This document shows, piece by piece, positions 28,921 to 58,283 of a stretch of 64,000 bases of DNA (positions within the stretch are counted from its first letter, which is position 1; every line of letters starts with the position of its first letter). Made by a program: the position numbers and the translations under genes. The stretch is from Deltaproteobacteria bacterium. GTDB lineage: Bacteria; Myxococcota; Kuafuiibacteriia; Kuafuiibacteriales; Kuafuiibacteriaceae. The DNA is taken from the NCBI GenBank assembly GCA_040218735.1, contig JAVJQW010000021.1, positions 91,629-155,628 on the forward strand. The letters are read 5' to 3'. Below the pieces are notes generated by a model. That model saw only the letters and a program-made list of their open reading frames with translations, was not told the origin of the DNA and ran no database searches.

Positions 28921-28941
28921 CGCGCGGGGCGACGCGACGCC

Positions 28942-29832: not shown

Positions 29833-29854
29833 CGTTCGCCTATCATCCGCGCCC

Positions 29855-37989: not shown

Positions 37990-39105
37990 ATGCGCCGTCT
38001 GAGAGCCTTCGGGATCCTCGTCCTCGTGGCCACCGCCTCCTTCGCCTCCCCCGCCTCACTCGCGTTCGGCGCCGAGGTCGGCGCCGAAGTCGACCGCGTC
38101 CGTTTGCACCTGCGTGCCGCGCAGGACTTCCTCGCCGAGCGCGACCTCTCCGCATTGCGTCCGCAGCAACGAATCCGCCGCGCGGAGCGGCTCGCGGATC
38201 TCGACGCGTACATCCGCCGCGGGCGCTTCCCGAAGAACGAACACATCCCCGTGGTGCGCGCGCCGTACTTCGTCGACGCCGCCGGGACCCACTGCGCCAT
38301 GGCGTTTCTCATCGCGCGCTCCGGTCGCGCCGATCTCGTCGAACGCGTACGGAGCACGGCGAACAACGCCTACGTCTACGAGCTCGCGGACGACCCCGAG
38401 CTCGCGGCGTGGCTCGACGAGAACGGCCTGACGATCGACGAAGCCGCGACGATCCAACCCACCTACGGTCCGATCTGCGAACCCCGGAGCACCTGCGTGT
38501 GCCAGCGCGACAGCGGGAACGTCGTGATGGAGGCGCCGGACACCGCGCACTACGTTCGCGTGGAGGAGCCGGGTGCGGAGGCGGTGCTCACGGTGCTCGC
38601 GAGCGTAGGGACCGCGACGCTCACCGTCGGCGAGCGGGTGACCCTCCCCGTGGGCGTGTTGAGCCAGGCCAAGGTGGGAGAGCACCACCTCGTCGCGCGG
38701 TACGCAGACGACCCGTTGGCCTCGTCGTTTTACTTCCGCAGCTTCGGACTGGTGGAGGAGCGGGAGCTCGTCGTCTGTCAGTGGGAGTCCTCGCTCGACC
38801 TGCGGCTCGACGTCGGCGTCGCGTTGGAGGCGGTCATCGCCGACGACTGCCACGGAGCCGTCGTCGCCGCGAGCTCGGACTTCGAAGGTGACTTCGGGCC
38901 TGACTGTGGCTGCGCTTGTTCGGACGTGGCGCCCCGAACCGGCGGCGCCAGCGCGTTGGTCTTGCTCGCGCTCCTGGGTTGCGCCGCCGCTACGCGCGCT
39001 GCCGGTAGAGGCCGGGCTCGACGACGGCCTTCATCGCGTCGATCTGGTCGTTACGCCCGAGGAACTCTGCGACCCGATCGATCTGCTTGTCGGGGTCACT
39101 CATGA
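37990..39105 (+). CDS. Secreted protein with a MYXO-CTERM-type C-terminal sorting signal (family A, intact copy)
   Basis: Signal peptide MRRLRAFGILVLVATASFASPASLA. The C-terminus is ...CGCACSDVAPRTGGASALVLLALLGCAAATRAAGRGRARRRP, a Cys-cluster plus TM plus Arg-cluster typical of MYXO-CTERM. The conserved core (VDAAGTHCAMAF...LTIDEAATIQPTY) is shared with the 49272 paralogue. The 3' end overlaps the convergent sulfotransferase gene by about 115 nt. Confidence 0.75.
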   Translation: MRRLRAFGILVLVATASFASPASLAFGAEVGAEVDRVRLHLRAAQDFLAERDLSALRPQQRIRRAERLADLDAYIRRGRFPKNEHIPVVRAPYFVDAAGTHCAMAFLIARSGRADLVERVRSTANNAYVYELADDPELAAWLDENGLTIDEAATIQPTYGPICEPRSTCVCQRDSGNVVMEAPDTAHYVRVEEPGAEAVLTVLASVGTATLTVGERVTLPVGVLSQAKVGEHHLVARYADDPLASSFYFRSFGLVEERELVVCQWESSLDLRLDVGVALEAVIADDCHGAVVAASSDFEGDFGPDCGCACSDVAPRTGGASALVLLALLGCAAATRAAGRGRARRRPSSRRSGRYARGTLRPDRSACRGHS

Positions 39106-39559
39106 GTCGGTTGTAGTTCACGAACAGGACCTCGAAGTCATCGCGGCCGGCGACGAAGGCCTCGATCTCCCCCACGTGCAGGATGAAGTTCTTCTTCATC
39201 TCGGCGTCCTCGAACGACTCGTCCTCGCCGCGGCGCTCCAGCATCTTCTTCTGCGAGCGCAGGATCTCATCGAGGTTTCGCCGCATGAAGATGACCCGGT
39301 AGCGGTACTCACCCTCGGGGAGCATCATCATCAGCCGCGAGATGACTTTCACCGCCTTGCCCTCGCATTCGGGGAGCCAACCCACGTCGTCGGGGAGCTT
39401 CTTCACGCGCTCCAGCTCGTAGTACCCACGTGGGTTGTCGTCGTCGGCGGCGCGCTCGCCGTCCGACACGACGCCGAGCCCCGCGGCCTCCAGCATCCGC
39501 ATCATCAGCGACGTCCCCGAGCGCGGCAGGCCCGACACGATCGTAATCGGTTCACTCAT
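38990..39559 (-). CDS. Sulfotransferase-family protein (PAPS-dependent)
   Basis: MSEPITIVSGLPRSGTSLMMRMLEAAGL is the 5'-PSB P-loop-like motif of sulfotransferases (PKSGTTW-like). The 189-aa size fits the Sulfotransfer_3 family. Confidence 0.8.
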   Translation of the reverse strand: MSEPITIVSGLPRSGTSLMMRMLEAAGLGVVSDGERAADDDNPRGYYELERVKKLPDDVGWLPECEGKAVKVISRLMMMLPEGEYRYRVIFMRRNLDEILRSQKKMLERRGEDESFEDAEMKKNFILHVGEIEAFVAGRDDFEVLFVNYNRLMSDPDKQIDRVAEFLGRNDQIDAMKAVVEPGLYRQRA

Positions 39560-39569
39560 CTCATCCTCC

Positions 39570-40379
39570 TCATATCTCCGCGCGCAGCGGCTTCTTCAGC
39601 ATCAGCGCGGCGATCCCCGAGCCGACCAACCAAATCGCCCACCACGGCACGCCGAGCCACGTGTCCTCCCGCGGCCCGTGGTTCAGCCACATCCGCTGCA
39701 CCAACCCATCCGGGTCCAGCGCCGCCTCCGACGACGCAGCCCAAGCGTTGGAGATCCCCGGCGCGCGCTCCACGCTCACCGGCCCGTTCTCCGACGCCAC
39801 GATCTGTTTTTCGAACGTCGCTTCACCCACCGACACCCGCGCGACGTGGCGCCCCTCGGACGCCACCTTCAGCCGGTAGTACAGCCGCCCCTCGCGCTCC
39901 GCGACGATCGGGCCGAGGTCGAGCTGTAGACCTTCGTCGAGCTCGAGCTTGGCGTCCTTCGCGGCCGTGCCGTCGACGAGCTGCACGCCGAGCATCACGC
40001 GGTTGTCCGGTGCGAACGGCGCGTACCCGTGGCGCAGCTCGAGGTGCAGATACACGAGCCCCAACGGGACGGTCAGCACGAGCAGCGCGGGCAACGTCTG
40101 TCCGGTGTACAGGAAGCTCCACAGGACCAGCCGCACCTGCGCGCGTGCGACGCGCAGCGGCTCGTCGAGGAACAGGCGCATCTCGTAGATCGCCGCAGTC
40201 ATGCGTTGCCGCGCGCGGACGAGCGCCTTTTGGTTCGTGGTCAGCTTGACGACCCACAGCGCGACGCCGCCCGTGAGCACCGTGACGATCAGCAACGCGA
40301 TCGACGGCGGGAGCCAGTCGAGCGGGAGCATCAGCCACTCGGTCACGGTGTGCACGGCGCTGCCGAACCAGGTGCCCAA
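39570..40379 (-). CDS. Hypothetical integral membrane protein
   Basis: Four predicted hydrophobic helices (LPPSIALLIVTVLTGGVALWVV, LVLWSFLYTGQTLPALLVLTVPLGLVYL, GVPWWAIWLVGSGIAALML). It lies 10 nt upstream of the sulfotransferase start on the same strand. Confidence 0.6.
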   Translation of the reverse strand: MGTWFGSAVHTVTEWLMLPLDWLPPSIALLIVTVLTGGVALWVVKLTTNQKALVRARQRMTAAIYEMRLFLDEPLRVARAQVRLVLWSFLYTGQTLPALLVLTVPLGLVYLHLELRHGYAPFAPDNRVMLGVQLVDGTAAKDAKLELDEGLQLDLGPIVAEREGRLYYRLKVASEGRHVARVSVGEATFEKQIVASENGPVSVERAPGISNAWAASSEAALDPDGLVQRMWLNHGPREDTWLGVPWWAIWLVGSGIAALMLKKPLRAEI

Positions 40380-40384
40380 CTTCG

Positions 40385-40696
40385 TCAGTCGATGTAGCCG
40401 AGGCCGCGCAGGCGCTTCTCGAACTGCTCGCGGTCGAGCCCATCCTCGTTGGCGTAGGCGGTGATGCCGCGCTCCAGGAGGTGCTCGATCAGCTCCTCCG
40501 CGGACGAGTACCCCTGCGTGTCGACGATGTGCTCGACCTGCTCGCCGAACGGCAGCGAGGTGTCGAGGCCGTCGTAGGTCGCCAGGCCCTTGTCGACGAG
40601 GTGCTGGCCGAAGTCGTCGGCGCCCTTGAAGCCGTTCTGTTTGCCGACCTCTTTGAGGCGGCCCTTCATCGATCTCGGTATCTTCAGCTTCTTCAT
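40385..40696 (-). CDS. Small hypothetical protein (103 aa)
   Basis: MKKLKIPRSMKGRLKEVGKQ... has a Lys-rich N-terminus, then an acidic helical protein with clean codon usage. It sits between NPP-like gene 1 and the membrane protein. Confidence 0.5.
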   Translation of the reverse strand: MKKLKIPRSMKGRLKEVGKQNGFKGADDFGQHLVDKGLATYDGLDTSLPFGEQVEHIVDTQGYSSAEELIEHLLERGITAYANEDGLDREQFEKRLRGLGYID

Positions 40697-40712
40697 CGCG
40701 TCTCTCTTCAGG

Positions 40713-42622
40713 TCAGGGCGGGGCGTCGAGGAACGTCTTGGCCTCGTCGTCGTCCAGCACGTCGAAGTACGCCTGCACGGTCGGCGCGACGTCCGTCAGG
40801 GACCAGGTCCCCGCCTTGATCTTCCGGTTGCTGAGTAACACACCTGGCACGTGCTGTGGGTCGACGCAGTGGTCGCCGCTCCACTTGTCCGTGTTCACCT
40901 CCAGGATCTGCCGGCCGATCTCCCCGAGCGCGGACTCGTCCGAGCTGCGGTAGCCGCGTGCGTACCCGACGATCAGGTCCGGCGTGCGATCCACGAACGC
41001 GCGCATCTCCGGCCGGAAGGTTCGGGTCACGACGCGCTCGCCGCTCTTGGGGTCCGTGAGGTTCTCCAGCTCGCGCGCGAGCGACTCGAGCACCCACGGC
41101 GCCTTCTCGGCGGTCACGATGCCTTCGGGCTCACGCCCCTCCAGGTTGAGGAAGATCTGATTCAACCCGAGCGCGTACGCGCGGGTCTTCGACCAGTCGA
41201 TGTGTCCGAGCACGGTCTTCTTGCGTTGGTTGGGCGGCGCGAGCGTGAGGAAGCCCTTCCGCGCCAGCCACGTGTTGAGGTGCACCTTGGTGTGGTACGG
41301 CCCGAAGCCGTGGTCGGACATCACGATCACCGCCGTGTCGTCGTCCGCCGCCTCCAGCACCTCGCCGATGACGCCGTCCATCTTCGCGTACAGATCCGGG
41401 ATCGTGTTCGCGAGCTTCTTTTCGGCCTCCGTCGCGTCGGGCTCCATCGTCCGCCAGAACATGTGCGAGACGAGGTCGACGCTCGAGAAGTAGAAGAACA
41501 GCAGCCCGTCGTCGAAGCGCGCGAGCTCGCGCTTCAACATCGCGTGCCGCTCCTCGAAGACGAGGTGCTCCTGCGCGAGGAAGTCCTCGTCCGACAGCAC
41601 GCCGCCGACGAGCGCCTTGGTGTCCTCCGGCATGCCCTGCGTGTAGAAGCGCCCCACGTCCGTCGCGATCTCGGAGGCGAAGGTGTCGGGCGCGGAGATC
41701 GGCTGCGCCGGAGAGAGCGGGTCGAGGTTGATCGGGCTGACGTAGATCGTCGGCGTCTCGCCGAGTGACTTCGCGTACACGCGCACCACCCCGGTGATCG
41801 AGACGACGTCCACAGACGGCGAGAACGAAATCTCGATCCAGTCCGACCACTCCCCTTCACGCAGCACCAGCTCCGTCTCACCGAGCCGAATCAACGCACC
41901 GTCCGCCTTGGGTCCGAAGTGCACGGTCACCGGGAGCTTCATCTCGGCGCCCGTCGGCGAGAGCGGATCCGGCGGTCCGTCCAGCTGCGAGGTGGCCTCG
42001 GTCGGGGTGAGCACGCGGAGCAGGTGCACGCGCCCGCCGCTCACGCGCTTCTTCGCGAGCAGCTCGCGCTCGGTCGTGAAGACCTGGAACAAGCCCGGCG
42101 TGCCCATCAGGTCCGGCGTCCCCATCCCGGAGAGCACGCGCGCCTTGCTCGGCTCGATCGGTGGATAGTTCGCGGGGATCTTCACGACGGTGGTCGGCGC
42201 GCCGTCGTCGGCGATCGCGGACCAGAACGGCCGCCCGCGCCGCAGGAGCTTCACGCCGCCGCCCATCGGGAGCACGTACTCACCCAGCTCCATGACGTAC
42301 GAGGGGCCCTCCGCCTTCGACGTCGACAGGTACGGCGACATCGAGTGCGGGTCGCGGTGCACGAAGTCGTAGATGCCGTGCACGTGCGACTCGTGCCCGG
42401 TGAGGAAGTTCGACCACGCGACGGGGGACTGCGGCGGCACGCTGGTGCCGAGGCGGAACAGCTCGTTCTCGACCGCGAGCCGAGTGAGGTTGGGCGCGCG
42501 ACCCTCCTCCATGAATTTCGCGAGGAGGTTCGGATCCATCCCGTCCACCGCGATGATGATCATCTTCGGGTTGTCACTCGACGAACACGCGGCCGCGAGC
42601 AGGACGAGCGGGAGGAGGCGTC

Positions 42623-42626
<4 letters not shown>
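40713..42626 (-). CDS. Alkaline-phosphatase-family / type I phosphodiesterase-nucleotide pyrophosphatase (NPP)-like lipoprotein
   Basis: Start MRRLLPLVLLAAACSSSD (LAAAC lipobox; ATG as the complement of 42624-26). IIIAVDGMDPNLLAKFMEEGRAPNLTRL matches the N-terminal metal-binding motif of PF01663. Later motifs are MSDHGFGPY and WSGDHC. Its ATG overlaps the stop of the upstream paralogue (ATGA). Confidence 0.85.
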
Positions 42627-44724
<2,098 letters not shown>

Positions 44725-44728
<4 letters not shown>

Positions 44729-46071
44729 TGAACGTATCCGAGGGTGCGCAGCTTCTCGACGAGCTCCGGGCTCACGTCCTTGCGAACCTTCCGCTGCGCG
44801 GCCGCGTAGTTGGCGAGGGTGCCGTTGTAGTAGCGCGCCATCTTCAGGCGCGCGTCGGGTTGGGTGTCAGCGATGTCCTTCAGCTCGAAGGGATCGTCGC
44901 GGAGATCGAAGAGTTGATCGGGCCCGCTCGAGAGGCGGAAGAGTTTGTAGTCGAGCCCGGTGATCGCGAGTTTGTCACCGGGCTCCCAGCCTTCACGGTG
45001 CCGGTGCACGCGCTCCGACAGCACGTACGGGCGTATGACCCGCCCGTCGAAGAGATCGATCCCCTCGAACTGCCGGTACAGCGCGTCGTCGAAGGGGAGG
45101 TCGAGGAGCCGTCCGAGCGTCGGGAAGATGTCGATGGTCGTCGCCATCCGCACGTTGCGCGCGGCGGCGAGCTCCAGCGATGCCGGCGGTTTGATGATCA
45201 GCGGGACGAGGATCTCCTCGTTGTAGATGCGCCCGTGGTCGTGCCAGTCGTGCTGCCAGAGCCCCTCGCCGTGGTCCGCGGTGATCACCACCGTGGTCTC
45301 TTCGTAGCGACCGGTGCGTTTGATCGCGTCGAGGAGACGTCCGAGGTGCTCGTCCATGTACGCGATCTCACCGTCGTACAGGTTGTTGATTTCGAGGACG
45401 TCGAACCGGACGTTGCCGATGCGGTGCTCGAGCTTCGTCCCGGTCTTCTTCACGAAGTCCTCGATGCCGTCCTTTTTGTCGAACTTGTCGTCGTACGGCG
45501 CCGGCGGCTCGTAGGGATCGTGGGGGTCCCAGAAGTGCACCCACATGAAGAACGGGCGGTCGTCGAAGCGCTCGAACTGCGTCATCGCGAGGTCCGCGGT
45601 GATCGCGCCGGGGCGGGGCCCGTCCTTGGGGTCGTCGTAGTGCTGGAAGCCGGAGGAGATCCCGGTGCCGTCCGCAACCGGGCTTGCGCTGACGACCGCC
45701 GCCGTCTGGTAGCCGGCCTTTTCGAACACCTCCGCGACGAGCCGAAGGTCCGGCTCCGACTCGAAGACCAGCCCATTGCGTACGATCTCGTGTCGGCGGG
45801 GCGGGGTGCCCGTCATGATCGAAGTGTGGGCGGGGAGCGTCGTGGCCATCGGGGTCGCGACGTTCTCGAAGACGATGGCTTCGTTCGCGAAGGCGTCGAG
45901 GTTCGGCGCGGTGTTCCGGAAGTAGCCGTAGGTCGGGAGGTGGTCGGCGCGGAGGGTGTCGATCGTGATCAGCAGGACGGACCGCCGCGACTGCGGATCG
46001 TCGTTCGCCGGACTCGAAGTCTTTGCGCACGCCGCGAGCGCCAACGCTGCGAGGGGACCCCACCGTCGCAT
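44725..46071 (-). CDS. Sulfatase-like (alkaline-phosphatase superfamily) lipoprotein, non-canonical active-site motif
   Basis: MRRWGPLAALALAACAKT carries a lipobox. Sulfatase motifs are SVLLITIDTLRADHLPTYGY, VVITADHGEGL and the Ca-binding DHG. The FGly position reads T-T-L-P-A-H instead of C/S-x-P-x-R. Its stop overlaps the next gene's ATG (ATGA). Confidence 0.85.
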
Positions 46072-46168
46072 CAGCGAATCCTACCACGACGGATGAACCC
46101 CTACGTTGGGGGCCTGCGGCAGCACGTCGCAGCGGGAAGCACCACAGGATGCGGGATGTTGTGCGTCC

Positions 46169-46696
46169 ATGAAGCGTCTGCTCCTGCTCCTGCTGCTGAT
46201 CCCCGCGACCGCGAGCGCCGCGCGCCCGGACCGCGCGCCGTCGCTGGATCCGATCGTCCGTGCCCTCGACGTGCAGATCGATCGCCACGCCACGCTCACC
46301 GAGGCGCAGCACGCCGAGGTGCACCGCGCCGGGAGTCGCTTGATCTCGCTGTGCCCGGACTGCCGCCTCGCGACGATCGCCGAAGAGGGCCCGTGCGGCT
46401 GGGCGCGCATGAGCCGACAGATCATCGGCGCCGCCGTGGCGAAGGGGATGAACGAAGAGGAGATCGTACAGGCGTACGTGAAGACGTACGGGCCCGACGT
46501 GCTCGCGGTCGACACCTCCGAAGGGCGCTACCAGGCGATGTGGGCGGTGCCGTACGTTTTGATCGCGGGCGCGCTCGCGCTGGTGTTCTTCATCGGTCGT
46601 CGCGCGCGACGGCGGGACGAGGAGCCGGTCGACGACGACGTCGATCCCGAGGCGCGCGCGCGCCTCGACGCGGAGCTCGGCGCGCTCGACGGCTGA
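46169..46696 (+). CDS. CcmH/NrfF-like cytochrome c-type biogenesis protein (CxxC, C-terminal TM)
   Basis: Signal peptide MKRLLLLLLLIPATASA. The motif SLCPDC (LRCxxC-like), then ...EIVQAYVKTYGPDVL..., and the TM segment AVPYVLIAGALALVFFIG followed by RRARRRD match the CcmH architecture. Confidence 0.65.
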   Translation: MKRLLLLLLLIPATASAARPDRAPSLDPIVRALDVQIDRHATLTEAQHAEVHRAGSRLISLCPDCRLATIAEEGPCGWARMSRQIIGAAVAKGMNEEEIVQAYVKTYGPDVLAVDTSEGRYQAMWAVPYVLIAGALALVFFIGRRARRRDEEPVDDDVDPEARARLDAELGALDG

Positions 46697-49202
46697 GCAG
46701 GAGCAGAGCCGCGAACGCCCAAGGCGACGACTTCGTGGGGTGCGCGCTGCAAGCGCAGCCCTCGTCGAGCCGCTCGTGCTCGAGCGACGCGTTCGGCGGT
46801 GGCGCCGCGACGATCGCGTCGCGCTCGATACGCCAAGGCTCCGCGCCGTGCTCCGGGTCGACGCCGATGAACGTGAGGTACCGCGGCCCCAGCAGGACGT
46901 CGCCGCTCGCATGAACGCCGCTGAAGCGGCCCGGCGCGACGTCCCCGATCGGGAGGGTGCCCTCGGACGTGCCGTCGGTGATGAACACCTCGCGCCCGAG
47001 CTCGGGGTGCCACGCGGAGAACGCCGCGCGGTCGCCGTGCACAGAGAGTGCGCGCGGCGCCGACGACGCTCGCCCCGGTGCGATGTCGCGGACGAGCTCG
47101 GGCTCCTGCCCGGGGCGCCAGCGCCACAGCTCTACGCCCGTGTCCTCTCGGTCGGCGACGACGAGGTAGCCACCGGCGAAGGGGACCACCGCTTCGACGC
47201 CCGTGAGCGGGACCGGCGTGACCCCCGCCTCCCCGATCACGACGGCGTGGCCGCCCACGTGGGCGATTCCGTCGCCGATGAGCTCGACGTTTTCGAAGCG
47301 TTCGCCAGGCGGTCCCTCGAAGCGCAGGTCCATCGCACCGCGATCGAGGTCGAGCTCCAAGACCACGACGGAGTCGACGACACTCTCTTGTGGGCGCCAC
47401 CCGAGAACGTAGCGGCGGTCGCCGCGGACGACCAGCTGACGGATGCCGATGACTGGCGCAGGCCCGAGATCGAAGCGCGTGAATTCGTCGCCGGACTCAC
47501 GCCAAAGCTCGAGGTGGTCGGTCTCGCCGCGGAGCAGGAGCTCGAGGCGGCCATCGTTCGCGAAGGCGACGTCGTGGATCGTCGATGCGTACGTCAGCTC
47601 GGGTGCGACGCGGCGGGTGCCGTCGAGGGTCCCGTCGCTCCTCCACCACCCGCCCTCGCCGAGGTACGTGCCTTCGACGTAGAACGCGAGGTCGCTGCGT
47701 GAGCGACGCAGGAGGCCGACGATCTCCCCCGACCACGCACGCACGAGCCTCGCGTTGTCCGCGTCGAGATCGAAGCGGTACAGCTGAACGCCGCGGTAGT
47801 CGTCGACGCTGAAGTAGTAGAACCCGTCGTCGTCGATCGAGGTGGGGCTGGACCCCGGGGCGCGCCAGACCTCCGCCCCGGTCGCGAGGTCCAGTCGGCT
47901 GCGGTGGTTTCGGTGCTGAACGAGGACCGTCCCGTCGCGCAGCTCGGCGAGCAGGGCTTCGGGGTAGTAGCGCGTCGGCGGCGGCGACTCGAAGGGCGTC
48001 GCCGACGCGACCCGTTCACCGTCTTCGCGGTACGCGTCGAGGTGCGGGCCGACCGGCGTCGACCGCGACACGATGACGCCGCCGCCGGGGCGTCGAGTGA
48101 TGCGGGTGGAGGTCGTGGCCGTGTCGATCTCCGCCACTTCGAGTGATGCGGCGTCGATGCGGAGGAGCTGCGCCTTGGGCCAAGTGCGCGCGCACCACGC
48201 GGCCTCGGCGCTGGTCACGAGCTCCGTGCAGCGGCCGACGTCGACGGCGCTCGGTGCGCCACGGAGCGCGACAACGTTGTGGTTGGTCGCGACTGCGAAG
48301 AGGGTGTCGGCCGCGACCGCCAGCCGCGCGACGGGTGGGTCGAGGGCGAGGAAGAGGGCGGTGTCGCCCGCCGTGCCGTCCGTGCGCCAGAGCTCACGAC
48401 CCGAGCCGCGCAGGAACCAGCCGAAGCCCGACGCGACCGTCAGCGCAGCGACGTCCTCGACGAGCTCGTGCGGAGCGGTGGACCCGCTCGGTATCGACCT
48501 CAGGCCCCCGTCGATCTCCAGGAGCACGGCGTCGCGAACCGCGAACGCGGCCTCGAAGTCACCGGCCTCCTCGAGCGGGATCACCACCCTCGTTCCTCCT
48601 CGGGTGCCGTCGCTGCTGTACAGATACGTGACGTCGTCGTCCTGGACCGAGAACCACAGCGCGCCCGCGGCGGCGGCGATCGGCCCGTTGCAGCCGCGTT
48701 CCTCGACCGGCCACACGAACACCTCGTCTTCCCCGTCACCGGTCGTTCGGGTGAGTGTGACGCGATGGTCCTCGGTGCTGAGGATGTAGACGTGCTCGCC
48801 CAGTCGAGCGATCTGCCGGACGCACGGGGTCCCGGCGCGCCCCGTGCCGCGCCCGATCTCGAAGGTGCCCGTCGGCGTGCCGTCGGTGCGGAGCACGACG
48901 CCGCGTGAGACGCCCGGACGCTGGACGATCATCACCGTGACCCCGCTGAGCTCGATGCTGCTCCGCGGCCAGCCGTAGCCGGTGTCGTCGAGGACGTGTT
49001 GCGCCTCGAGGGTCTGCGGATCGAGCCGCCAGAGGCGCCGGAACGGACCGGCCTGGTCGAGCCAGAGCGCGCCGCCGATCGGTGCGTTCGTCCAGGTGAC
49101 CGTCGACGGGCCCGGCACGAGGTCGCGCAGGAGGGTCGGCTCGCCCGCGAGCGCAGCCGGGCTCGCGAGCACGAAGCCGAAGGCGAGGCGCGCGCGGACC
49201 AC
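46590..49202 (-). CDS. Secreted ELWxxDGT-repeat beta-propeller-like protein with a MYXO-CTERM sorting signal
   Basis: Signal peptide MVRARLAFGFVLASPAALAG. Recurrent (E)LWR(T/S)DGTxxGT motifs (ELWRTDGTAGDT, WWRSDGTLDGT, VFITDGTSEGT, VLRTDGTPTGT). The C-terminus GCACSAHPTKSSPWAFAALLLLSRRARRAPRRG is a Cys-cluster plus TM plus Arg-cluster. The 3' tail overlaps the convergent CcmH-like gene by about 105 nt. Confidence 0.8.
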   Translation of the reverse strand: MVRARLAFGFVLASPAALAGEPTLLRDLVPGPSTVTWTNAPIGGALWLDQAGPFRRLWRLDPQTLEAQHVLDDTGYGWPRSSIELSGVTVMIVQRPGVSRGVVLRTDGTPTGTFEIGRGTGRAGTPCVRQIARLGEHVYILSTEDHRVTLTRTTGDGEDEVFVWPVEERGCNGPIAAAAGALWFSVQDDDVTYLYSSDGTRGGTRVVIPLEEAGDFEAAFAVRDAVLLEIDGGLRSIPSGSTAPHELVEDVAALTVASGFGWFLRGSGRELWRTDGTAGDTALFLALDPPVARLAVAADTLFAVATNHNVVALRGAPSAVDVGRCTELVTSAEAAWCARTWPKAQLLRIDAASLEVAEIDTATTSTRITRRPGGGVIVSRSTPVGPHLDAYREDGERVASATPFESPPPTRYYPEALLAELRDGTVLVQHRNHRSRLDLATGAEVWRAPGSSPTSIDDDGFYYFSVDDYRGVQLYRFDLDADNARLVRAWSGEIVGLLRRSRSDLAFYVEGTYLGEGGWWRSDGTLDGTRRVAPELTYASTIHDVAFANDGRLELLLRGETDHLELWRESGDEFTRFDLGPAPVIGIRQLVVRGDRRYVLGWRPQESVVDSVVVLELDLDRGAMDLRFEGPPGERFENVELIGDGIAHVGGHAVVIGEAGVTPVPLTGVEAVVPFAGGYLVVADREDTGVELWRWRPGQEPELVRDIAPGRASSAPRALSVHGDRAAFSAWHPELGREVFITDGTSEGTLPIGDVAPGRFSGVHASGDVLLGPRYLTFIGVDPEHGAEPWRIERDAIVAAPPPNASLEHERLDEGCACSAHPTKSSPWAFAALLLLSRRARRAPRRGARAPRDRRRRRPAPRPAVARDDR

Positions 49203-49271
49203 TCCGCGGTGAGTGGCCGACCCGCCGCCATTCCGTCACCGTTTGACGGTTCGGGTGGTCCTCGGCCACTC

Positions 49272-50352
49272 ATGGGAGCGATGCCGCGGTTGCCCTTCCT
49301 GCTCGCACTCATGATCCCCTCTGCCGCGTGGGCCTCCCCGGACTTCGAGGCCTCGGAGCAGGCCCGTATCCGACGGCACCTGCTCCGCGCGGAGACGGCG
49401 GCCTCGTGCGCGAGCGACGCCCGATCTGTCGAAGGCTCAGCGTACGCGCCGCGCGGCTGCGCTCGACGCCCTCGCGCGGTACCGCGAGGCGGGGCGCTTC
49501 CCCGTCAACGTCGACGTCGTGGGGCGAGCCCCGGTCTTCGTCGACCACCGCGGGGTGCGCTGCGCGATGGCCGAGCTCCTGCACGTGACCGGTGAGGACG
49601 CGCTGGTGGCGCGCGTCGCGGCGACGAACAACCTCGCGCGGATCCACGATCTGGCGTCCGACGAAGGGCTGACCCGTTGGCTCGACCACCACGGGCTGAC
49701 CGTCGACGAGGCGGCCGCGATCCAGCCGACGTACCGCTGGTGCTACGACCGCAGCGAGGCGTTCTGCCCGTTCGCACCGACCACGGGGATCGTACGCGTC
49801 GAGCTCATCGACTGGGTGCCCGACGCGACCGAGCAACGCTTCCGCGTGACCGAGGTGCTGTCGGGGACCGTCGCGCAGGTCGCAGACGAAATCGTGGGCC
49901 GGACGTACGGCACGAGGCGCGAAGAGGTCCAAACCGCGGTCGCAGTGCTCTTGCCCCGTAGCTCGGTCCAACGCGTGCTGGGGCTTCGGGACGGCGAGGT
50001 GTTCGTCGCCGAGGACCCGTGCGACGTCGATGTGTCGGTGCCGCTCGAAGACGTGGTGTCCCTCTTGCTCGCCGAGGATTGCGCGGACCGACTCGAGCGC
50101 CGCGATCCCGTGTGGGCTGGACGTTGGTGCACCACACGTGCGGGGCCGGACTGCCCGGTCGCGCCGGACGCCGGCTTCCCGTCCTACGATGCCGGCGGAG
50201 CGATCGACGCCGGGGCGGTGTCCGACACGGGGGTGTCGCCGTCGGTGGAGCCCAACGGATGCCGCTGCACGACGCGCGGTCGGGCGTCGCCGTGGGCGTT
50301 ACTCCTGCTCGTTCTTCTTCAGGCTCGCCTTGCCCTGCCACGCCGGAAATAA
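49272..50352 (+). pseudogene. Frameshifted paralogue of the 37990-39105 MYXO-CTERM protein (probable pseudogene, or a sequencing or programmed frameshift)
   Basis: In frame 0 (from ATG 49272/49281) the sequence reads MGAMPRLPFLLALMIPSAAWASPDFEASEQARIRRHLLRAETAASCASDAR, aligning with the intact paralogue's signal peptide and VRLHLRAAQDFLAERD. From about 49415-49432 the homology continues only in frame +1 (PDLSKAQRTRRAAALDALARYREAGRFPVNVDVVGRAPVFVDHRGVRCAMAELL... compared with DLSALRPQQRIRRAERLADLDAYIRRGRFP...VDAAGTHCAMAFL). A conserved LTVDEAAAIQPTY segment and a MYXO-CTERM-like end (NGCRCTTRGRASPWALLLLVLLQARLALPRRK) are retained. Confidence 0.55.
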
Positions 50353-50922
50353 CGTCACGTCCACGCCGGCGACCGAGAGGGCGCGCTGCGCGACGAAGTC
50401 GGCGAGGTCCGCGAACGACTCGGGCTGCTGGTAGAACGCCGGGTTCGCGGGGACGACGGTAGCGCCGGCGCGCGCGAGCTTCAGCATGTTCTCGAGGTGG
50501 ATGATCGAGAACGGGGTCTCGCGCGGGACGATCACCAGCGGGCGCCGCTCCTTCAGCGTCACGTCCGCGGCGCGCTCGATGAGGTTCGACGCCAGGCCGT
50601 TGGCGATCCCCGCGAGGGTCTTCATCGAACACGGCACCACGATCATCCCGTCGCAGCGCGCGGAGCCGCTCGCGATGCGCGAGGTCTGATCACCCACCGC
50701 GTGCATCGTGATCGAGCCGGGGTGCTCGCCGTACGCAGATTCCAGCCACGCCTTCACGTCGCCGTCGAAGGCGCCGAATGACGTCTCCTGCTCCAACGTG
50801 AGCTTGCCGTACGCAGACACCACGACGTCCACGTCGTGCCCCGCGATCAGGAGCGCGCGCACCACGCGCTCGAAGTAGAGCGCGCCGCTCGCGCCGGTGC
50901 CTGCGACGGTGTAGCGGCCCAT
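50299..50922 (-). CDS. ubiX: UbiX-family flavin prenyltransferase (prenyl-FMN synthase)
   Basis: MGRYTVAGTGASGALYFERVVRALL... and MIVVPCSMKTLAGIANGLASNLIERAADVTLKERRPLVIVPRETP match canonical UbiX/Pad1 motifs. Length is 207 aa. Confidence 0.9.
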   Translation of the reverse strand: MGRYTVAGTGASGALYFERVVRALLIAGHDVDVVVSAYGKLTLEQETSFGAFDGDVKAWLESAYGEHPGSITMHAVGDQTSRIASGSARCDGMIVVPCSMKTLAGIANGLASNLIERAADVTLKERRPLVIVPRETPFSIIHLENMLKLARAGATVVPANPAFYQQPESFADLADFVAQRALSVAGVDVTLFPAWQGKASLKKNEQE

Positions 50923-50923
50923 G

Positions 50924-52288
50924 TCACTTCCTCCCCAGGAGCGCGTTGACGTCGACCCGATCCCACACGTCCTGCGGGACGGTGTTCTTCGTGACTTCTC
51001 GCGCGCCGACGATGCGGCGCGTGGCGTCGATCCCCATCTTCGTTACGCGCCCCTCGGCGTTGGTGCACGAAGGGTCGAGCGGCGTCCCGAGCGTGTCTTC
51101 GAACAAGTGCACGTCGACGTTCGCTTGAGTAGATAGCGCCATCGCGCCGAGTACCTGCCGCAGGTCGCTGGGGTCGACGGTCGCGTCCACGACGATCACG
51201 TGTTTGCGGTAGATGTCCGCGTTCAGCAGCGCGTCCATCACGCGCTGCGGCTCGTCGTCGTCGGCTTTGTCCATCGCGACGACCAGCGTGAACGGCGCGG
51301 GCAGCGCGACGCCGACGACGTTCTCGCTCGCCGCCATCGCGTCCCGCTTCGCGCGGCTCTCGATCGCGAGCATCGGCAACACGAGGTGCTCCATGTGCCC
51401 GCTGACCACGTCCTGGAAGATCGCGTCGTTCCGTTCGCAGATCGCGGTGACTTCGAACACCGGCGTCGTGGTCGCGCCGGTGCCGTACCCCGTGAACTCA
51501 CCGAAGGGGCCCTCGGGCGTCGTGACGTCGTGTTTCACCACGCCCTCCAACACGATCTCCGCGCGCGCCGGTACCAGGACGTCCTGCGTCTTGCCGCGCA
51601 CGAGCTCGAGCGGCTCGCCGAGGAGCCCGCCGATGACGTCGTACTCCGCGACGTCCGCCGAGCCGGAGTAGAGCGCTCCGAGCATCCACGACGGGTGCGC
51701 GCCGATGAACACGCCGATCGGCATGTCGCGTTTCGCGGCGACGTACTTTTGGAAGATGCCGTCGAGGTGTTTGCCCTTCTCGATGAAGATGCCGGTGTGG
51801 TTTCGGTCGATCACCATCAGCCGGTGAAAGCTCAGGTTGGTGACGCCGGTGTCCGGGTCCGCCGCGCAGACGATCGCGCAGGTGACGTACGGCGCGTCGG
51901 CGTCGTGCTCGTGGTAGACGAGCGCCGGGAAGCGCGACAGATCCACGGCCTCGCCGGTGTCGACGTTTTCGTGCACCGGCGCGTCCTCGACGATGTTCGG
52001 GGCGACGAGGTGGTCCACCGCGGCGTCGTAGCGTTCGACCGCCTCGCGGAGCCCGCAGTCCAGGGCGAGCGCGACACGACCCTGGGACCCGCAGACGTTG
52101 GTGACCAACGGGTACCGCGTGCCCGCGACCTTCTCGAAGTACACCAGCGGTGAGCGTCGCTTCTCTTCGAGGCGCGCGACGATCGCGCACGTCTCGAAGC
52201 GCGGGGAGACCTCGTGCTCCACACGGAGCAGATCACTCTTGCGACGCTGTTCGAGCAGCTCCAGGAAGCCACGGAGATCGGCGGTCAC
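50924..52288 (-). CDS. UbiD-family (prFMN-dependent) reversible decarboxylase
   Basis: DLRGFLELLEQRR..LLRVEHEVSP is the UbiD N-terminal signature. The body runs through ...GPFGEFTGYG...VDATVDP. The most plausible start is GTG at 52288 (VTADLRGFL), which overlaps the upstream ligase stop (GTGA). The track's N-terminal extension to 52462 is Arg-rich. Confidence 0.85.
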   Translation of the reverse strand: MTADLRGFLELLEQRRKSDLLRVEHEVSPRFETCAIVARLEEKRRSPLVYFEKVAGTRYPLVTNVCGSQGRVALALDCGLREAVERYDAAVDHLVAPNIVEDAPVHENVDTGEAVDLSRFPALVYHEHDADAPYVTCAIVCAADPDTGVTNLSFHRLMVIDRNHTGIFIEKGKHLDGIFQKYVAAKRDMPIGVFIGAHPSWMLGALYSGSADVAEYDVIGGLLGEPLELVRGKTQDVLVPARAEIVLEGVVKHDVTTPEGPFGEFTGYGTGATTTPVFEVTAICERNDAIFQDVVSGHMEHLVLPMLAIESRAKRDAMAASENVVGVALPAPFTLVVAMDKADDDEPQRVMDALLNADIYRKHVIVVDATVDPSDLRQVLGAMALSTQANVDVHLFEDTLGTPLDPSCTNAEGRVTKMGIDATRRIVGAREVTKNTVPQDVWDRVDVNALLGRK

Positions 52289-53766
52289 GTCGAGGGCACC
52301 AGCGACGGGATCTTGCCGCGGTTGATCTTCCCCGACCCGGTCTTCGGGAGCTCCGCGACGACGTGCAGCTCGCGCGGCACACGCACGAAGCTCATGTGTT
52401 CGAGGCAGTGCGGTCGCAGCTCGGCCATCGTCAGCGACTGGCCGGCCTCCAACACGACACACGCGATGAGACGCTCGCCCATGCGGTCGTCGGGCACCGC
52501 GAACACGGCGGACTCGACGATCGCGTCGTGGCGATTCAGGACATCCTCGATCTCCTGCGGGAACACACGCTCGCCTGCGAGCTTCATCATGTCGGACTTG
52601 CGCCCGACCAGGAACAGGTGCCCGTCGTCGAGGCGCCCGAGGTCACCGGTGCGCAGGCGCCCCTTCGCGTCGAGGCGCCCGGAGGTGACCTCGTCGCCCG
52701 ACACGTAACCCTTCATGATGTTCGGACCGCTCGCGACGACCTCGCCGACCTCCCCCAGGGGGAGGACCTCGTCGTCGTCGCCGAGGATCTCCACGAGCAC
52801 GTTCGACAGCGGACGGCCCGCAGTCCCCCGACGACCGAAGAGATCTTCGGGCGACGCGTACGTGATGCGCGGCGCGGCCTCCGTCTGACCGTAGGCCGTG
52901 TGGATACCGACGCCCTCGCCCAGCGCCTCGCGCAACTTGTCTTGCTCGGTGAGCGACAGCGCGCCGCCGGTGCACAGGACGTACTTCAGGTCCGGCGTCT
53001 CGGCCGCCGCGAACGACTTCATCAGCGACTTGAAGTGATAGGGCACGCCCGAGAATCCGGTGACGCGGTGATCGACGATCTCCTGCACCACCTTCTTGGG
53101 GAAGTGAAAGCCGGCCGAGAAGACGAGGGTCCCGCCGATCATCGCGTGCATCAGGATCTGCATGCGCCCGTGCACGAAGTAACTCGGCACCACGACCAAG
53201 ATGCTGTCGTTGGCGTCGAGGTGCATCCAGTCGTTCGCGGCCGTGAGGTTCGACGCGAAGTTTTCGTGCGACAGCATCACGCCCTTCGGGCGCCCCGTCG
53301 TGCCGGACGTGTAGACGACGAGCGCGACGTCGTCCGGCTCGCGCGGGTTGGCTGGCCGCACCTCGGACTCCCCGAGCTCGAGGATGTTCGACACCACCGC
53401 AGGTTTGTGCCCGAGCGGCGTGCCGCCCTCGATCTTTTCGAGGAGCGCGGGCTCTGCGACGAGCGCCTTCGGTTTTGCCTCTTCGAGGATCGTCTCGATC
53501 GTGCCGCGCTGCGCGAGGCCGGGGAGGTCGACGTTGACCGCCCCGAGCTTCAACACCCCCCAGAACGCGACGAACCCCTCCAGCGCGTTGCCCCACAACA
53601 GGGACACGCGGTCACCCGGGGCGACGCCGATCGAGGCGAGGTGCGCCGCGACCGCGTTGCTTCGCCGGTCGAGCGCACCGTAGGTGATGGAGGTGTCCGG
53701 GAAGACCGCGGCGAGGTGCTCGGGGTCCCGGTCGGCGGCGCGCGTCAGGAAGTCGACGAGGCGCAC
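52285..53766 (-). CDS. AMP-dependent synthetase/ligase (adenylate-forming enzyme, DltA/acyl-CoA-synthetase-like)
   Basis: LVVYTSGTTGRPKGVMLSHEN (AMP-binding motif I), YGQTEAAPRITY, GDLGRLDDGHLFLVGRKSDMMKLAGERVFPQEIE and the C-terminal LPKTGSGKINRGK. Start is taken at GTG 53766 (VRLVDFLTRAADRDPEHLAAVF); no ATG occurs within 60 codons, so the start is uncertain. Confidence 0.85.
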   Translation of the reverse strand: MRLVDFLTRAADRDPEHLAAVFPDTSITYGALDRRSNAVAAHLASIGVAPGDRVSLLWGNALEGFVAFWGVLKLGAVNVDLPGLAQRGTIETILEEAKPKALVAEPALLEKIEGGTPLGHKPAVVSNILELGESEVRPANPREPDDVALVVYTSGTTGRPKGVMLSHENFASNLTAANDWMHLDANDSILVVVPSYFVHGRMQILMHAMIGGTLVFSAGFHFPKKVVQEIVDHRVTGFSGVPYHFKSLMKSFAAAETPDLKYVLCTGGALSLTEQDKLREALGEGVGIHTAYGQTEAAPRITYASPEDLFGRRGTAGRPLSNVLVEILGDDDEVLPLGEVGEVVASGPNIMKGYVSGDEVTSGRLDAKGRLRTGDLGRLDDGHLFLVGRKSDMMKLAGERVFPQEIEDVLNRHDAIVESAVFAVPDDRMGERLIACVVLEAGQSLTMAELRPHCLEHMSFVRVPRELHVVAELPKTGSGKINRGKIPSLVPST

Positions 53767-53771
53767 GCGGT

Positions 53772-54017
53772 TCAGCTCTTGCGGCTGTCGATGTACGACG
53801 CGAGCTTGACGACGCTCCCGAACTGCTCCGGATCGATGTCGTCGAGGTCGACCTGGAAGCCGAAGTTGTCCTCGATCCAAACGACCAACTCCATGATCGC
53901 GGTGGAGTCGATGACGTCGGCGAGGTTGGTCTCGCGCTCGAGGTCCGACTTACCGGCCGCGAGCTCGCTGCTGATGTACGTGAGGAGCTTCTGTTCGATC
54001 TCCGCCGTTTTGCTCAT
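53772..54017 (-). CDS. Acyl/peptidyl carrier protein (phosphopantetheine-binding)
   Basis: 81 aa: MSKTAEIEQKLLTYISSELAAGKSDLERETNLADVIDSTAIMELVVWIEDNFGFQVDLDD. The D-S-T/A motif sits at the canonical serine position. ATG (complement of 54015-54017) overlaps the upstream stop (ATGA). The 251-aa track ORF upstream part is Arg-rich junk. Confidence 0.85.
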   Translation of the reverse strand: MSKTAEIEQKLLTYISSELAAGKSDLERETNLADVIDSTAIMELVVWIEDNFGFQVDLDDIDPEQFGSVVKLASYIDSRKS

Positions 54018-55111
54018 GACTCGACTGCATACTCCCGGATTTTTTCCCGCGCAACGCTCAGTCCGAGGCCTGGATCGTCGGGATCCACCCCGAAGGGGGC
54101 CGGCGGTTCGACCAGAACATCGTGAGACAACAGGTGGTGGTTCTGCCCCTTCCCGTCGAGGCAGTCGAACCCCTCGACCCGCGTCGCAAAAACCTCGGTC
54201 GCACGCGTGAGCACCCCGGTCTCCCCCACCATCGTCCCGAGGTGAACCCGCAGGTCGTGCGCGCGGGCCACTTCGACGATCCGCTTCGCGCGCACCATCC
54301 CGCCCAGCTTGCCGAGGCGCACGTTGAACACGTCCGCGGCCCCCATCGCCGCGATGCGCTCCGCGTCCGCGAGGTGGATCAGGGCCTCGTCGACCATCAC
54401 GCGGTGCCCCGCCTCCCGGATGCGGACGAGGCCGTCGAGATCGGCGGCGGGGATCGGCTGCTCGATCGACGCGATGTCCACGCCGTCGAGCGCGTTCAGC
54501 TTCTCGATCGTCTCCTCCACGGTCCACGCTTCGTTGGCGTCGAGGCGGATCGGGAGCTTCAGCTTCTCCCAGACGATGCGGATACGCTCCGCGTCGTCGT
54601 CGAGGCCGACCTTCACTTTGATGTGTCGACGCCGCTTGAACCTCAGGAGCGCGCAGTGTTTGGCGAGCGCGTCCGTCGCGACCTCGAACCCGATGATCAC
54701 CCCGGCGGGGAGCGCCTCGATGGACGCGGGCCCGAGGAACGCGCCGGCGCTGGTGTTCGTGGCGCGGCCGACGAGGTCGAGGAGCGCGAGCTCGAACCCG
54801 CCGAACGTCGCGAGGCGTGACTCGTGGTCGGCGATCGCATCGTCCGCAAACGCGGCGGCGGCCTCGACCGAGTCGATCGACCGGCCCGCGAAGGCGGCGA
54901 AGACCGCGGCGGCGTGTTCGGCCTTCACGGTCTCGATCGTCTCGCCGGTCACGTACGCGCGCGGTTGGATCTCGCCCCAGCCCTCGACGCCGTCGGCGTG
55001 CAGGCAGACGAGGAGCGCATCCGATGCGTGGCGCGCGTGGCTCGCGTGCTCGAACGACCCCTTGAACGGGATGCGGACGTGGAACAGCTCGTAGCGTTCA
55101 ATCGGTCCCAC
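54014..55111 (-). CDS. Enolase-superfamily enzyme of the mandelate racemase/muconate lactonizing enzyme (MR/MLE) family (dipeptide-epimerase/OSBS-like)
   Basis: KVKVGLDDDAERIRIVWEKLKLPIRLDANEAWT, then ...DVFNVRLGKLGGM...AHDLRVHLGTMVGETGV. The metal-ligand D/E/D pattern and KxK motif fit MR/MLE. Confidence 0.8.
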   Translation of the reverse strand: MGPIERYELFHVRIPFKGSFEHASHARHASDALLVCLHADGVEGWGEIQPRAYVTGETIETVKAEHAAAVFAAFAGRSIDSVEAAAAFADDAIADHESRLATFGGFELALLDLVGRATNTSAGAFLGPASIEALPAGVIIGFEVATDALAKHCALLRFKRRRHIKVKVGLDDDAERIRIVWEKLKLPIRLDANEAWTVEETIEKLNALDGVDIASIEQPIPAADLDGLVRIREAGHRVMVDEALIHLADAERIAAMGAADVFNVRLGKLGGMVRAKRIVEVARAHDLRVHLGTMVGETGVLTRATEVFATRVEGFDCLDGKGQNHHLLSHDVLVEPPAPFGVDPDDPGLGLSVAREKIREYAVES

Positions 55112-56696
55112 GGAAGCGCTCCGTGATCTCGAACCGCCCGACGAACGCGGCGTCGCGGGTGAGGTGCACGTGTTTGTACTGAAGGTCCGCGCCGCCGGCG
55201 GCGATCTTCTCCGCCTTGAGCGCCGCGTAGCTCCCGCTGGCGACTTGCCACACCTCGGGGGCGCCGAGCCGGCGTGACTTGCGTTTGCCCGCGTACTCGC
55301 CGTTGTACTTCCCGATCGCGGCGTCGAGCGTCGCGGCGGCGTGTTGGAGCATCGAACGATCGGCGGTGCCGCGGGTCTCGACGAGCAACACGTAGTGCGG
55401 CAGCTCGCCGTCGACGACGGGCGCGAGGGTGAACGACTCCACGTGTTGGTTGTCGAGGATCTCGGTGGCCGCGGCGGTCACCTGCGCTTCGGTGAGCTTC
55501 TCTCCCGTCAACGACGAGGTCCGGCCCGTGCGGTGCAGGAACTCCACGACCGGCGTCGTGCCCTCGAAGCGCTTCACCCGGACGACGTCGCCGATGTCGT
55601 AGCGGTAGAGGCCGGCGCGGTTGGTGAGCACCACGACGTACTCGCCGCCGACCTCGGCTTCGTGCGGGAGGATCGTCTCCGTCGAGTCTTCGGGCCTCAG
55701 CTCGTAGAAGCAGATCCCCACGCCGAGCGCGCCGCCCGACTCGCCGTCGGCGAGCGGGATCGCGAGGATGCCCTCCGACGCCATCGACACGTAGTCACGC
55801 ACCGCGACGCCGCCGAGGTGGGGCTCGAGGCGTTCGAGGTACGGCGCGAGCATCGGCGAGCGCCAGGACACCGCGAGCTCGAGCGCCGGGAAGGCCTTCG
55901 CCGCCGGGAGCCGCGGGAAGTCCGCGGCCAGGAGACCGCGCAGTTCTTTCGCGCGCGCGGGGTTCGGCGCGATCGCTTCGAGCACCGCGGCGCGGGCTTC
56001 GTCGTCGATGGAATACACATCGGACAACGTGCCGTTTTCGACGTCGGCGAGGAGCCGATCGAGCTGGTCTTCGAGGGTCTTGAACAGCAGCAGGATCGTG
56101 CTCGGGTTGAGCGCCATGATCGCGGTGAACTCGCGTTCGAGTAACACCCGGGCGATCGCGTAGTAGCGCGCGTCGTGATCCGCGATCTTCGAAACGGCGC
56201 GCGGGACGACGGGTTTCTTGCGTTGGGTCGCCGCCGTGACGCTCGCCCAGTACGCGCTCTCGGAGCTCGTCGGCAGCCCGCCCGCCGACGGCTCGGGCCG
56301 TCCAGCGTCCGAGAAGTTCGTGACCATGCGCCCCTTCGCGACGCCGGGATGCTGAGAGAATACGAGGTCCCAGAAGATCCCGAACGCCCGCGACTTGTCG
56401 CGGATGAAGCTTTGCGTGACCGGGATGTACTTGGGTCGCGCGGTCGAGCCGCTCGTGGTGAAGAAACGCTTCGTCGGCTCGGTGGTCAGGACCGCGGCTT
56501 CACCGCGGTCGATGCGCTCGACGTCGTCGCGAAAGCCCTCATAGTCCCGAATGGGCACCGCGCGGCGGAAGTCGTCGACGGTGCGAATCGCGCCGAAGTC
56601 GTGCGTGCGTCCGAACGCGGAGTCGACGTTCGGCGCCACGATCGAGTCCAGGAGCCACGCGGACTGCGTCGCCTCGGAGTCGGCGAGTGCGGCCAT
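55098..56696 (-). CDS. GH3-family (acyl-acid amido synthetase-like) adenylating protein
   Basis: FFTTSGSTARPKYIPVTQSF (GH3 motif TSGTS...K.IP) and YASSE-like VSMASEGILAIPL. The 533-aa product matches the size and layout of bacterial GH3 (PF03321) proteins. Start is taken at MAALADSEAT. Confidence 0.75.
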   Translation of the reverse strand: MAALADSEATQSAWLLDSIVAPNVDSAFGRTHDFGAIRTVDDFRRAVPIRDYEGFRDDVERIDRGEAAVLTTEPTKRFFTTSGSTARPKYIPVTQSFIRDKSRAFGIFWDLVFSQHPGVAKGRMVTNFSDAGRPEPSAGGLPTSSESAYWASVTAATQRKKPVVPRAVSKIADHDARYYAIARVLLEREFTAIMALNPSTILLLFKTLEDQLDRLLADVENGTLSDVYSIDDEARAAVLEAIAPNPARAKELRGLLAADFPRLPAAKAFPALELAVSWRSPMLAPYLERLEPHLGGVAVRDYVSMASEGILAIPLADGESGGALGVGICFYELRPEDSTETILPHEAEVGGEYVVVLTNRAGLYRYDIGDVVRVKRFEGTTPVVEFLHRTGRTSSLTGEKLTEAQVTAAATEILDNQHVESFTLAPVVDGELPHYVLLVETRGTADRSMLQHAAATLDAAIGKYNGEYAGKRKSRRLGAPEVWQVASGSYAALKAEKIAAGGADLQYKHVHLTRDAAFVGRFEITERFRGTD

Positions 56697-56815
56697 GTAG
56701 GCCTCGGCTTCGCGCTTGCGGAACACGCCTCGATCGATACCAGCATCGGCGGTCCGAGACGAACGTTGACTGCGCATTCGGGACGTAACAGGAACGGTCC
56801 CGCGGACGACGCGCC

Positions 56816-58273: not shown

Positions 58274-58283
58274 CGGTGCCGAC

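Follow-up and report, generated by a model that had tools for sequence, protein, structure and literature searches.

Cargo proteins of the MYXO-CTERM type, whose prototype is TraA of Myxococcus xanthus and which are served by the myxosortases MrtX, MrtC and MrtP, are defined by a tripartite C-terminal signal, and cleavage by MrtX has been described (PMC11980579). According to a preprint by Haft, the author of the TIGR03901 model, the signature contains an invariant Cys, which frequently has a second one close to it (GCGC-like), the gene of the sorting enzyme is not expected to lie beside those of its cargo, and the model is short and divergent, with lineage-specific forms that score low and need curation. 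We analysed a stretch of 64,000 nucleotides (nt) from a Deltaproteobacteria bacterium placed in the Myxococcota (assembly GCA_040218735.1, contig JAVJQW010000021.1, positions 91,629 to 155,628; hereafter the window). It encodes two paralogous proteins with candidate MYXO-CTERM tails, termed A and B (Table 1), and the reading frame of gene B is interrupted. Three kinds of described systems are suitable for comparison with this lesion, namely strain-specific frameshift pseudogenes of bacterial surface proteins, reversible contingency loci and programmed +1 frameshifting of the prfB/RF2 type.

The original prediction had claimed a jump of homology from one frame to the next within B, and this was confirmed. 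The 5′ part of the gene is read in the frame of position 49272, which encodes a signal peptide and ...IRRHLLRAETAA, and the rest lies in the +1 frame (...RARATPDLSKAQ...VDHRGVRCAMAELL... or, more fully, RARATPDLSKAQ...GRFPVNVD...FVDHRGVRCAMAELL...LTVDEAAAIQPTY... and then ...NGCRCTTRGRASPWALLLLVLLQARLALPRRK) up to the stop codon at 50350-50352. The claimed location of the jump at 49415-49432 had to be corrected, as alignment with the DNA of relatives disclosed one inserted T at 49404, 11-28 nt upstream. Across the junction, the sequence of the window is GCGGCC-T-CGTGCG, compared with GCGGCC-CGTGCG or GCGGCG-CGAGCG in the intact genes, with no further difference there. A pair of compensating indels (frame 0 to +2 to +1), at which the sequence GLVRER in the third frame had hinted, was also considered and rejected, as intact orthologues differ by a single base. 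The N-terminus of B is MGAMPRLPFLLALMIPSAAWA followed by SPDFEASEQARIRRHLLRAETAA. Since the orthologue with 82% identity begins with MPRL, the second ATG (49281) is probably the conserved start. The insertion falls 44 codons into the gene, whose intact form has 359 amino acids (aa). We consider it probable that B was lost recently and only in this strain through the single extra T, i.e. by ordinary gene loss and not by means of a regulatory device.

This interpretation is based on the distribution of the T among related sequences. B joined across the frame change was searched against databases, and the DNA of the matches was aligned to the window. Three related lineages encode B in one piece: P0001, with 359 aa and 98% identity (Logan assembly of DRR530892), P0002, with 358 aa and 82% identity (NCBI GCA_030429805.1 and Logan ERR3420974), and P0162 (Logan SRR26209243), the third intact lineage, which reads RAETEARARATPDLSK. 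All three contain RAET[AE]ARARATPDLSK in a single frame, and ...RAETAARARATPDLSK... is likewise read in one frame (about 92-98.6% nucleotide identity, where DNA was compared). The comparison with orthologous loci, which the original prediction had suggested, showed the extra T to be missing from three related lineages. It is absent from L001, which is 98.6% identical to the window over 21 kb, and from L004 and L005 (about 92-94%); it is present in the window, L002, L003 and L010-L012. Carriers comprise contig Ga0573880_001 of JGI 3300058926 (11.5 Mb), a 155-kb contig of the NCBI metagenome-assembled genome (MAG) GCA_040216985.1, labelled 'Deltaproteobacteria bacterium', and a 33-kb Logan contig of SRR26209547, each 100% identical to the window. 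The truncated product of 277 aa is recorded under three accessions of NCBI MAGs and on as many contigs, of which the longest comprises 155,628 bp. JGI and Logan data contain a fragment of 261 aa (P0003) that does not differ from the window.

These carriers have to be judged with regard to another explanation, by which the T arose from an error in the consensus or the assembly, or from polishing that fixed a minority allele, and the organism possesses an intact 359-aa B. Several points weigh against a true loss. The T at 49404 is known from assembled sequences, not from reads. Every assembly that carries it is 100% identical to the window over 5-21 kb, so that all of them could share source material; they may derive from one culture or from overlapping read sets, and their agreement may be weaker than it appears. 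Furthermore, the change is a single-base indel in DNA of about 72% GC (guanine plus cytosine), and a gene that is otherwise undamaged and under purifying selection looks just like an intact one. However, the same base occurs in assemblies of 11.5 Mb, about 155 kb (contigs of at least two lengths) and 33 kb, whose differing contiguity probably reflects differing methods or data, and it sits between two Cs with neither a homopolymer nor an adjacent T, unlike a homopolymer length error. The sequencing indel, one of the possibilities raised by the original prediction, is for these reasons unlikely, and we infer that the T is truly part of the DNA. In a 99.9%-identical MAG (GCA_040220335.1), contig JAVJUZ010001195.1 (L013) ends inside B at window position 49564. 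This break may reflect strain heterogeneity in B; as a bubble of sequences with and without the T it was uninformative, because it lies 160 bp downstream of the site.

Apart from the T, the gene is well preserved. B with the T removed differs from the L001 copy by ten synonymous and five non-synonymous changes and displays neither a second indel nor a stop codon. The ratio of non-synonymous to synonymous polymorphism (pN/pS) was 0.18 against L001 and 0.22 against L004. Neighbouring genes gave values of this order, and that of the adjacent ELWxxDGT protein was higher (0.33). Under neutrality about 73% of the changes are expected to be non-synonymous, compared with the 5 out of 15 observed (binomial P = 0.0014). 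Judged by these substitutions, B appears to have been under purifying selection until very recently, since pN/pS is low and other lesions are missing, and the insertion would be its sole and latest event.

A functional frame change, either a programmed +1 ribosomal frameshift or a slippage-prone phase-variation switch controlling the amount of B, would agree with a shift that occurs early in the gene and with the perfectly kept downstream frame. Yet B shares with frameshifting of the prfB/RF2 type the +1 direction alone and lacks a slippery/stop site of the CUU-UGA type, a stimulatory structure and conservation in orthologues. The site GCC-U-CGU has no slippery P-site codon, as tRNA-Ala cannot re-pair on CCU, and its A site holds neither a stop nor an obviously rare codon. 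A stretch of 100 nt starting there folded no better than shuffled sequences (z = +1.5; 189 of 200 shuffles folded at least as well). Homopolymers are missing at the site, and Tandem Repeats Finder detected no tandem repeat within 49250-49650; the indel thus lies outside any simple-sequence repeat, in contrast to those of reversible contingency loci. Moreover, none of the three related lineages has the extra base, and to our knowledge true recoding sites are conserved. The slippage-based expression control considered in the original prediction is consequently extremely improbable.

It is also very unlikely that B is used in a truncated form, produced by re-initiation at GTG 49519 or ATG 49567. 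Such a use would agree with the output of gene callers, which report no other fragments than the resulting cytoplasmic or tail-anchored proteins of 277 and 261 aa, both of them signal-less. However, these have lost the first half of the conserved N-terminal domain including the invariant residues R5, H9 and F49-P50-x-N52 (with the ATG start also C71), and no orthologue shows this form. If B has been lost through the T, as we prefer, ribosomes starting at the true start would halt at the premature TGA after a predicted product of 107 aa, composed of 44 native and 63 out-of-frame residues. The remaining 315 codons would be left without a signal peptide, for which reason no surface protein B would be made, and A would stay intact beside the disabled gene. 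The situation resembles that of strain-specific frameshift pseudogenes of bacterial surface proteins, in that a single-base indel occurs early in a gene whose body is intact in other respects, sister strains possess undamaged orthologues and a paralogue survives.

The relationship between the two proteins, claimed in the original prediction on the basis of three pairs of motifs, was borne out. A and B joined across the frame change aligned by BLASTP over 325 aa (34% identity, E = 4e-31), and the alignment takes in all three pairs. Both proteins have their own orthologues. Those of A are P0009 (69% identity), P0010 (60%), P0011 and P0012 (both 50%), besides P0008, which is identical to A in the NCBI and JGI annotations; those of B are P0001, P0162 and P0002, and P0130 is a B-type protein of lower similarity. 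In the GCA_030429805.1 and GCA_040223155.1/SRR26209243 lineages, the orthologues of A and B occupy corresponding positions, and the genes follow one another as they do in the window: the vault-like gene, A, a sulfotransferase gene, two small genes, three phosphodiesterase/sulfatase genes, CcmH, the ELWxxDGT gene, B, UbiX and UbiD. A and B are ancient paralogues of one uncharacterised family of Sec-exported, putatively surface-anchored proteins. A recent decaying duplicate was rejected in view of the 34% identity and the separate syntenic orthologues. The corresponding suggestion of the original prediction thus holds as far as B is disabled, whereas the copy is not recent and its decay amounts to one base.

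The 3′ end of B was remodelled as well. In the window and in L001, about 55 bp are missing at the junction of B and UbiX near 50313/50314, as revealed by alignment with L004. This deletion took the end of the hydrophobic segment, RRR, the B stop codon, the spacer and the UbiX stop codon, and both genes now overlap by 54 nt (50299-50352), each with a new C-terminus. The last residues of B (...WALLLLVLL-QARLALPRRK) are translated from the antisense strand of the UbiX 3′ end. L004 and P0162 retain WLAPFALFGLFGLIWIVRRR and WLALFGLLGLMGIARRR, and the full tail of L004 reads ...GCRCVRGEGSSWLAPFALFGLFGLIWIVRRR before its stop codon. The new tail of B resembles that of the ELWxxDGT protein (GCAC-SAHPTKS-SPWAFAALLLL-SRRARR), which is positive with the TIGR03901 hidden Markov model (HMM). 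Because purifying selection on B continued afterwards, the deletion did not obviously disable the protein. The P0162 lineage has instead lost the B stop codon and has a 39-aa read-through; the junction is an indel hot spot.

Table 1. Positions and properties of the studied features within the window
Feature	Position	Strand	Remarks
Paralogue A	37990-39105	+	intact open reading frame, 371 aa
N-terminal domain of A	38083-38472	+	residues 32-161, all-alpha, 130 residues
Tail of A	38896-39105	+	GPDCGCAC, spacer, 19 uncharged residues (TGGASALVLLALLGCAAAT), RAAGRGRARRR, 25-aa extension
ELWxxDGT protein	46590-49202	-	870 aa; TIGR03901 20.2 bits (whole protein), 25.6 bits (tail alone)
Tail of ELWxxDGT protein	46677-46763	-	MYXO-CTERM match
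Gene B	49272-50352	+	frame change inside
5′ part of B	49272-49403	+	original frame; signal peptide MGAMPRLPFLLALMIPSAAWA, then SP... to ...RAETAA
Inserted T	49404	+	context GCGGCC-T-CGTGCG, from DNA alignment with relatives
3′ part of B	49405-50352	+	+1 frame, RARATPDLSK... to RRK and stop; most of the N-terminal domain, middle domain, tail
Premature TGA	49593-49595	+	ends translation of B after 63 out-of-frame codons
Tail of B	50254-50352	+	NGCRC-TTRGRA-SPWALLLLVLL-QARLALPRRK, stop
Unrelated secreted protein	59092-60192	-	tail TGCSCAAS...CGAVVLLALGLLTA-RTVRRRFRR

The C-termini of A, B and two further proteins, the ELWxxDGT protein and an unrelated secreted protein, were compared with MYXO-CTERM cargo. 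By eye, all four tails contain a Cys motif (DCGCAC in A, GCRC in B, GCAC in the ELWxxDGT protein and GCSC in the secreted protein), a hydrophobic stretch and an Arg cluster. In MYXO-CTERM signals the transmembrane segment should contain neither charged residues nor proline and should precede an Arg-rich C-terminus. Uncharged runs comprise 19 residues in A, 12 in B (followed by QARLALP), 13 in the ELWxxDGT protein and 14 in the secreted protein. A ends with ...GPDCGCACSDVAPRTGGASALVLLALLGCAAATRAAGRGRARRR and 25 more residues, an extension shared by P0010; P0009 and P0012 stop shortly after RR. The last 116 nt of A (38990-39105) overlap the convergent sulfotransferase gene (38990-39559, minus strand). 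The original prediction had placed the secreted protein at 59092-60144. Its tail with Cys, transmembrane and Arg elements was found again; the gene lies on the minus strand, and the protein probably starts at the ATG at 60144 within a longer open reading frame.

We also applied the model TIGR03901 (TIGR03901.2, curated cutoff 20 bits) to whole proteins at E<=1 and to tails at E<=10. The only protein of the window among those tested that exceeded the cutoff was the ELWxxDGT protein, whose assignment to the ELWxxDGT repeat proteins was affirmed by TIGR04534 (89.1 bits, cutoff 65) in three matched stretches. The secreted protein remained below the cutoff (tail 7.0 bits, E = 7.4; no match of the whole protein at E<=1). 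Orthologue tails obtained 10-15 bits, and two family members with the same N-terminal domain matched the model at the equivalent position (P0086, 21.9 bits; P0100, 18.1 bits). Hence, the MYXO-CTERM label given in the original prediction is upheld only in part. The layout of all four tails agrees with it, whereas the model did not recognise A, B and the secreted protein, formally an outcome that the prediction itself had named as a refutation, and the claimed enrichment of a cargo set rests on one HMM-positive and three sub-threshold proteins.

Judging from their sequences, A and B are probable, though divergent, members of the MYXO-CTERM cargo. Like known cargo, the window proteins have an N-terminal signal peptide and a tripartite tail, whose Cys motif often includes a second Cys (CGCAC, GCRC, GCAC, GCSC); several proteins with unrelated bodies occur in one genome, and the enzyme is not encoded beside them. 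They differ from it in that only the ELWxxDGT protein reaches the model cutoff, that short hydrophobic segments (12-14 uncharged residues) are found in the ELWxxDGT protein, B and the secreted protein, and that A continues for 25 residues past its Arg cluster. Some observations do not favour the assignment. A gave no TIGR03901 match at all, neither as a whole nor with its tail, and B did not exceed 11.2 bits with its tail and gave no match as a whole. The tail of B has just 12 uncharged residues before R and P. Among the precomputed Pfam matches, which cover about 1-60.4 kb of the window, there was no PF02517 (CPBP) gene; the rest of the genome was not searched. By analogy with MYXO-CTERM cargo, the tail would hold exported A or B in the inner membrane until a CPBP-type myxosortase cuts at the Cys motif, and the cleaved protein would then be passed to the cell surface. 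The genome size of 11.5 Mb, the GC content of the window (about 68%), the ELWxxDGT repeats and the single TIGR03901 match are compatible with a Myxococcota host. A YfhO-family membrane protein (16663-19065, plus strand) also has a C-terminal hydrophobic segment, followed by WRRRRRSVSSSA, and lacks a Cys motif; an end consisting of a hydrophobic and an Arg-rich part alone is therefore not specific to MYXO-CTERM cargo.

Between the signal peptide and the tail, A comprises a conserved N-terminal domain and a beta-rich, Cys-containing middle domain. The N-terminal domain matched no Pfam or NCBIfam model and, by fold or sequence, no PDB entry, and the middle domain, too, found no match in the PDB. 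The AlphaFold2 model of the N-terminal domain was confident and all-alpha, with a predicted local distance difference test (pLDDT) score of 95.5. In the full-length model of A, this domain and residues 180-300 mostly exceeded a pLDDT of 90, and residues 320-338 formed the tail helix. The middle domain of A and B is beta-rich with conserved Cys residues (pLDDT mostly >90). An alignment of 14 diverse members disclosed 23 invariant positions in the N-terminal domain, among them (domain numbering) R5, H9, F49-P50-x-N52, F63-x-D65, C71-A72, W110, E120 and I124-Q125-P126-x-Y128.

A profile search with this domain covering 1.84 billion cluster representatives yielded 4,381 matches at E<=1e-3, of which 1,386 reached E<=1e-30. 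Proteins of 280-320 aa that contain the domain just past the signal peptide predominate; it is also encoded in MAGs of Planctomycetota. About a fifth of the best 160 members possess tails with Cys, transmembrane and Arg elements, and at least 67 of these 160 end with ...RF, preceded in those inspected by a Gly/Ala-rich hydrophobic region. A distant member, P0016, carries a type A sorting domain of the type IX secretion system (T9SS; TIGR04183, 36.5 bits, cutoff 23). It shares this tail with the T9SS type A proteins, unlike the proteins of the window, which are without a T9SS domain. The tail of P0016 indicates that not all members rely on one and the same sorting system to present the conserved domain on the outside of the cell. 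With some reserve, we propose that the domain may be an un-curated, widespread extracytoplasmic module whose fold is absent from solved structures, with at least two recognised sorting tails (MYXO-CTERM-type and T9SS) and a commonest architecture in which a Gly/Ala-rich hydrophobic region precedes a terminal ...RF. The invariant Cys of the domain, situated at the N-terminus of a helix, could, together with the likewise invariant His, Asp and Glu, mark a new surface enzyme or ligand-binding site.

Genes in the neighbourhood of A and B were inspected as well. Directly upstream of A lies a vault-like gene (35376-37898, plus strand; 840 aa), which exceeds the Pfam gathering scores of two domains of the Major Vault Protein, Vault_3 (35.2 bits, cutoff 28.8) and MVP_shoulder (31.6 bits, cutoff 25); its pairing with A is kept in GCA_040223155.1 (L022). 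A is surrounded by a sulfation- and phosphoester-themed block (27220-46071) that is conserved in related MAGs. It includes an ATP sulfurylase/APS kinase fusion (27220-28920), a DUF3604 gene (30499-33000), a sulfatase gene (32964-35267), the sulfotransferase gene and three Phosphodiest/Sulfatase genes (40713-46071). A YjbR-domain protein (29855-30502, plus strand) has a Lys/Ala-rich, histone-H1-like tail of tandem repeats (AAKKxTAKKS...; Pfam HC2). It comprises 215 aa in the window and 165 aa in GCA_040220335.1 (99.94% identity), which indicates that even strains with hardly any sequence difference vary in the number of repeats. The ELWxxDGT gene continues for 28 residues past its MYXO-CTERM match and shares 107 nt at its 3′ end (46590-46696) with the convergent CcmH gene, and this overlap is kept in GCA_030429805.1. 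Together with that of A and the sulfotransferase gene, it suggests that long convergent overlaps are common here. Downstream of B, a conserved cluster (50299-59141) contains UbiX, UbiD, an AMP-binding enzyme, a PP-binding carrier protein, MR_MLE, GH3, MBOAT (56789-58273) and an unannotated protein of 285 aa. It looks like a system of the Dlt/MBOAT type for carrier-protein-dependent acylation of a surface polymer.

The frameshift in B is of minor importance, being a routine strain-level loss; its paralogue is intact, and so are the orthologues of sister strains. It entails a correction of the annotation, as the hypothetical proteins of 261-277 aa in JGI and NCBI are pieces of a 359-aa gene. TIGR03901, moreover, overlooks most candidate cargo in this lineage. 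The finding is real but ordinary, and mild novelty is confined to the N-terminal domain, which is widespread and un-curated. Being large, taxonomically broad and repeatedly joined to surface-sorting tails, this domain is a reasonable target for the definition of a new family.

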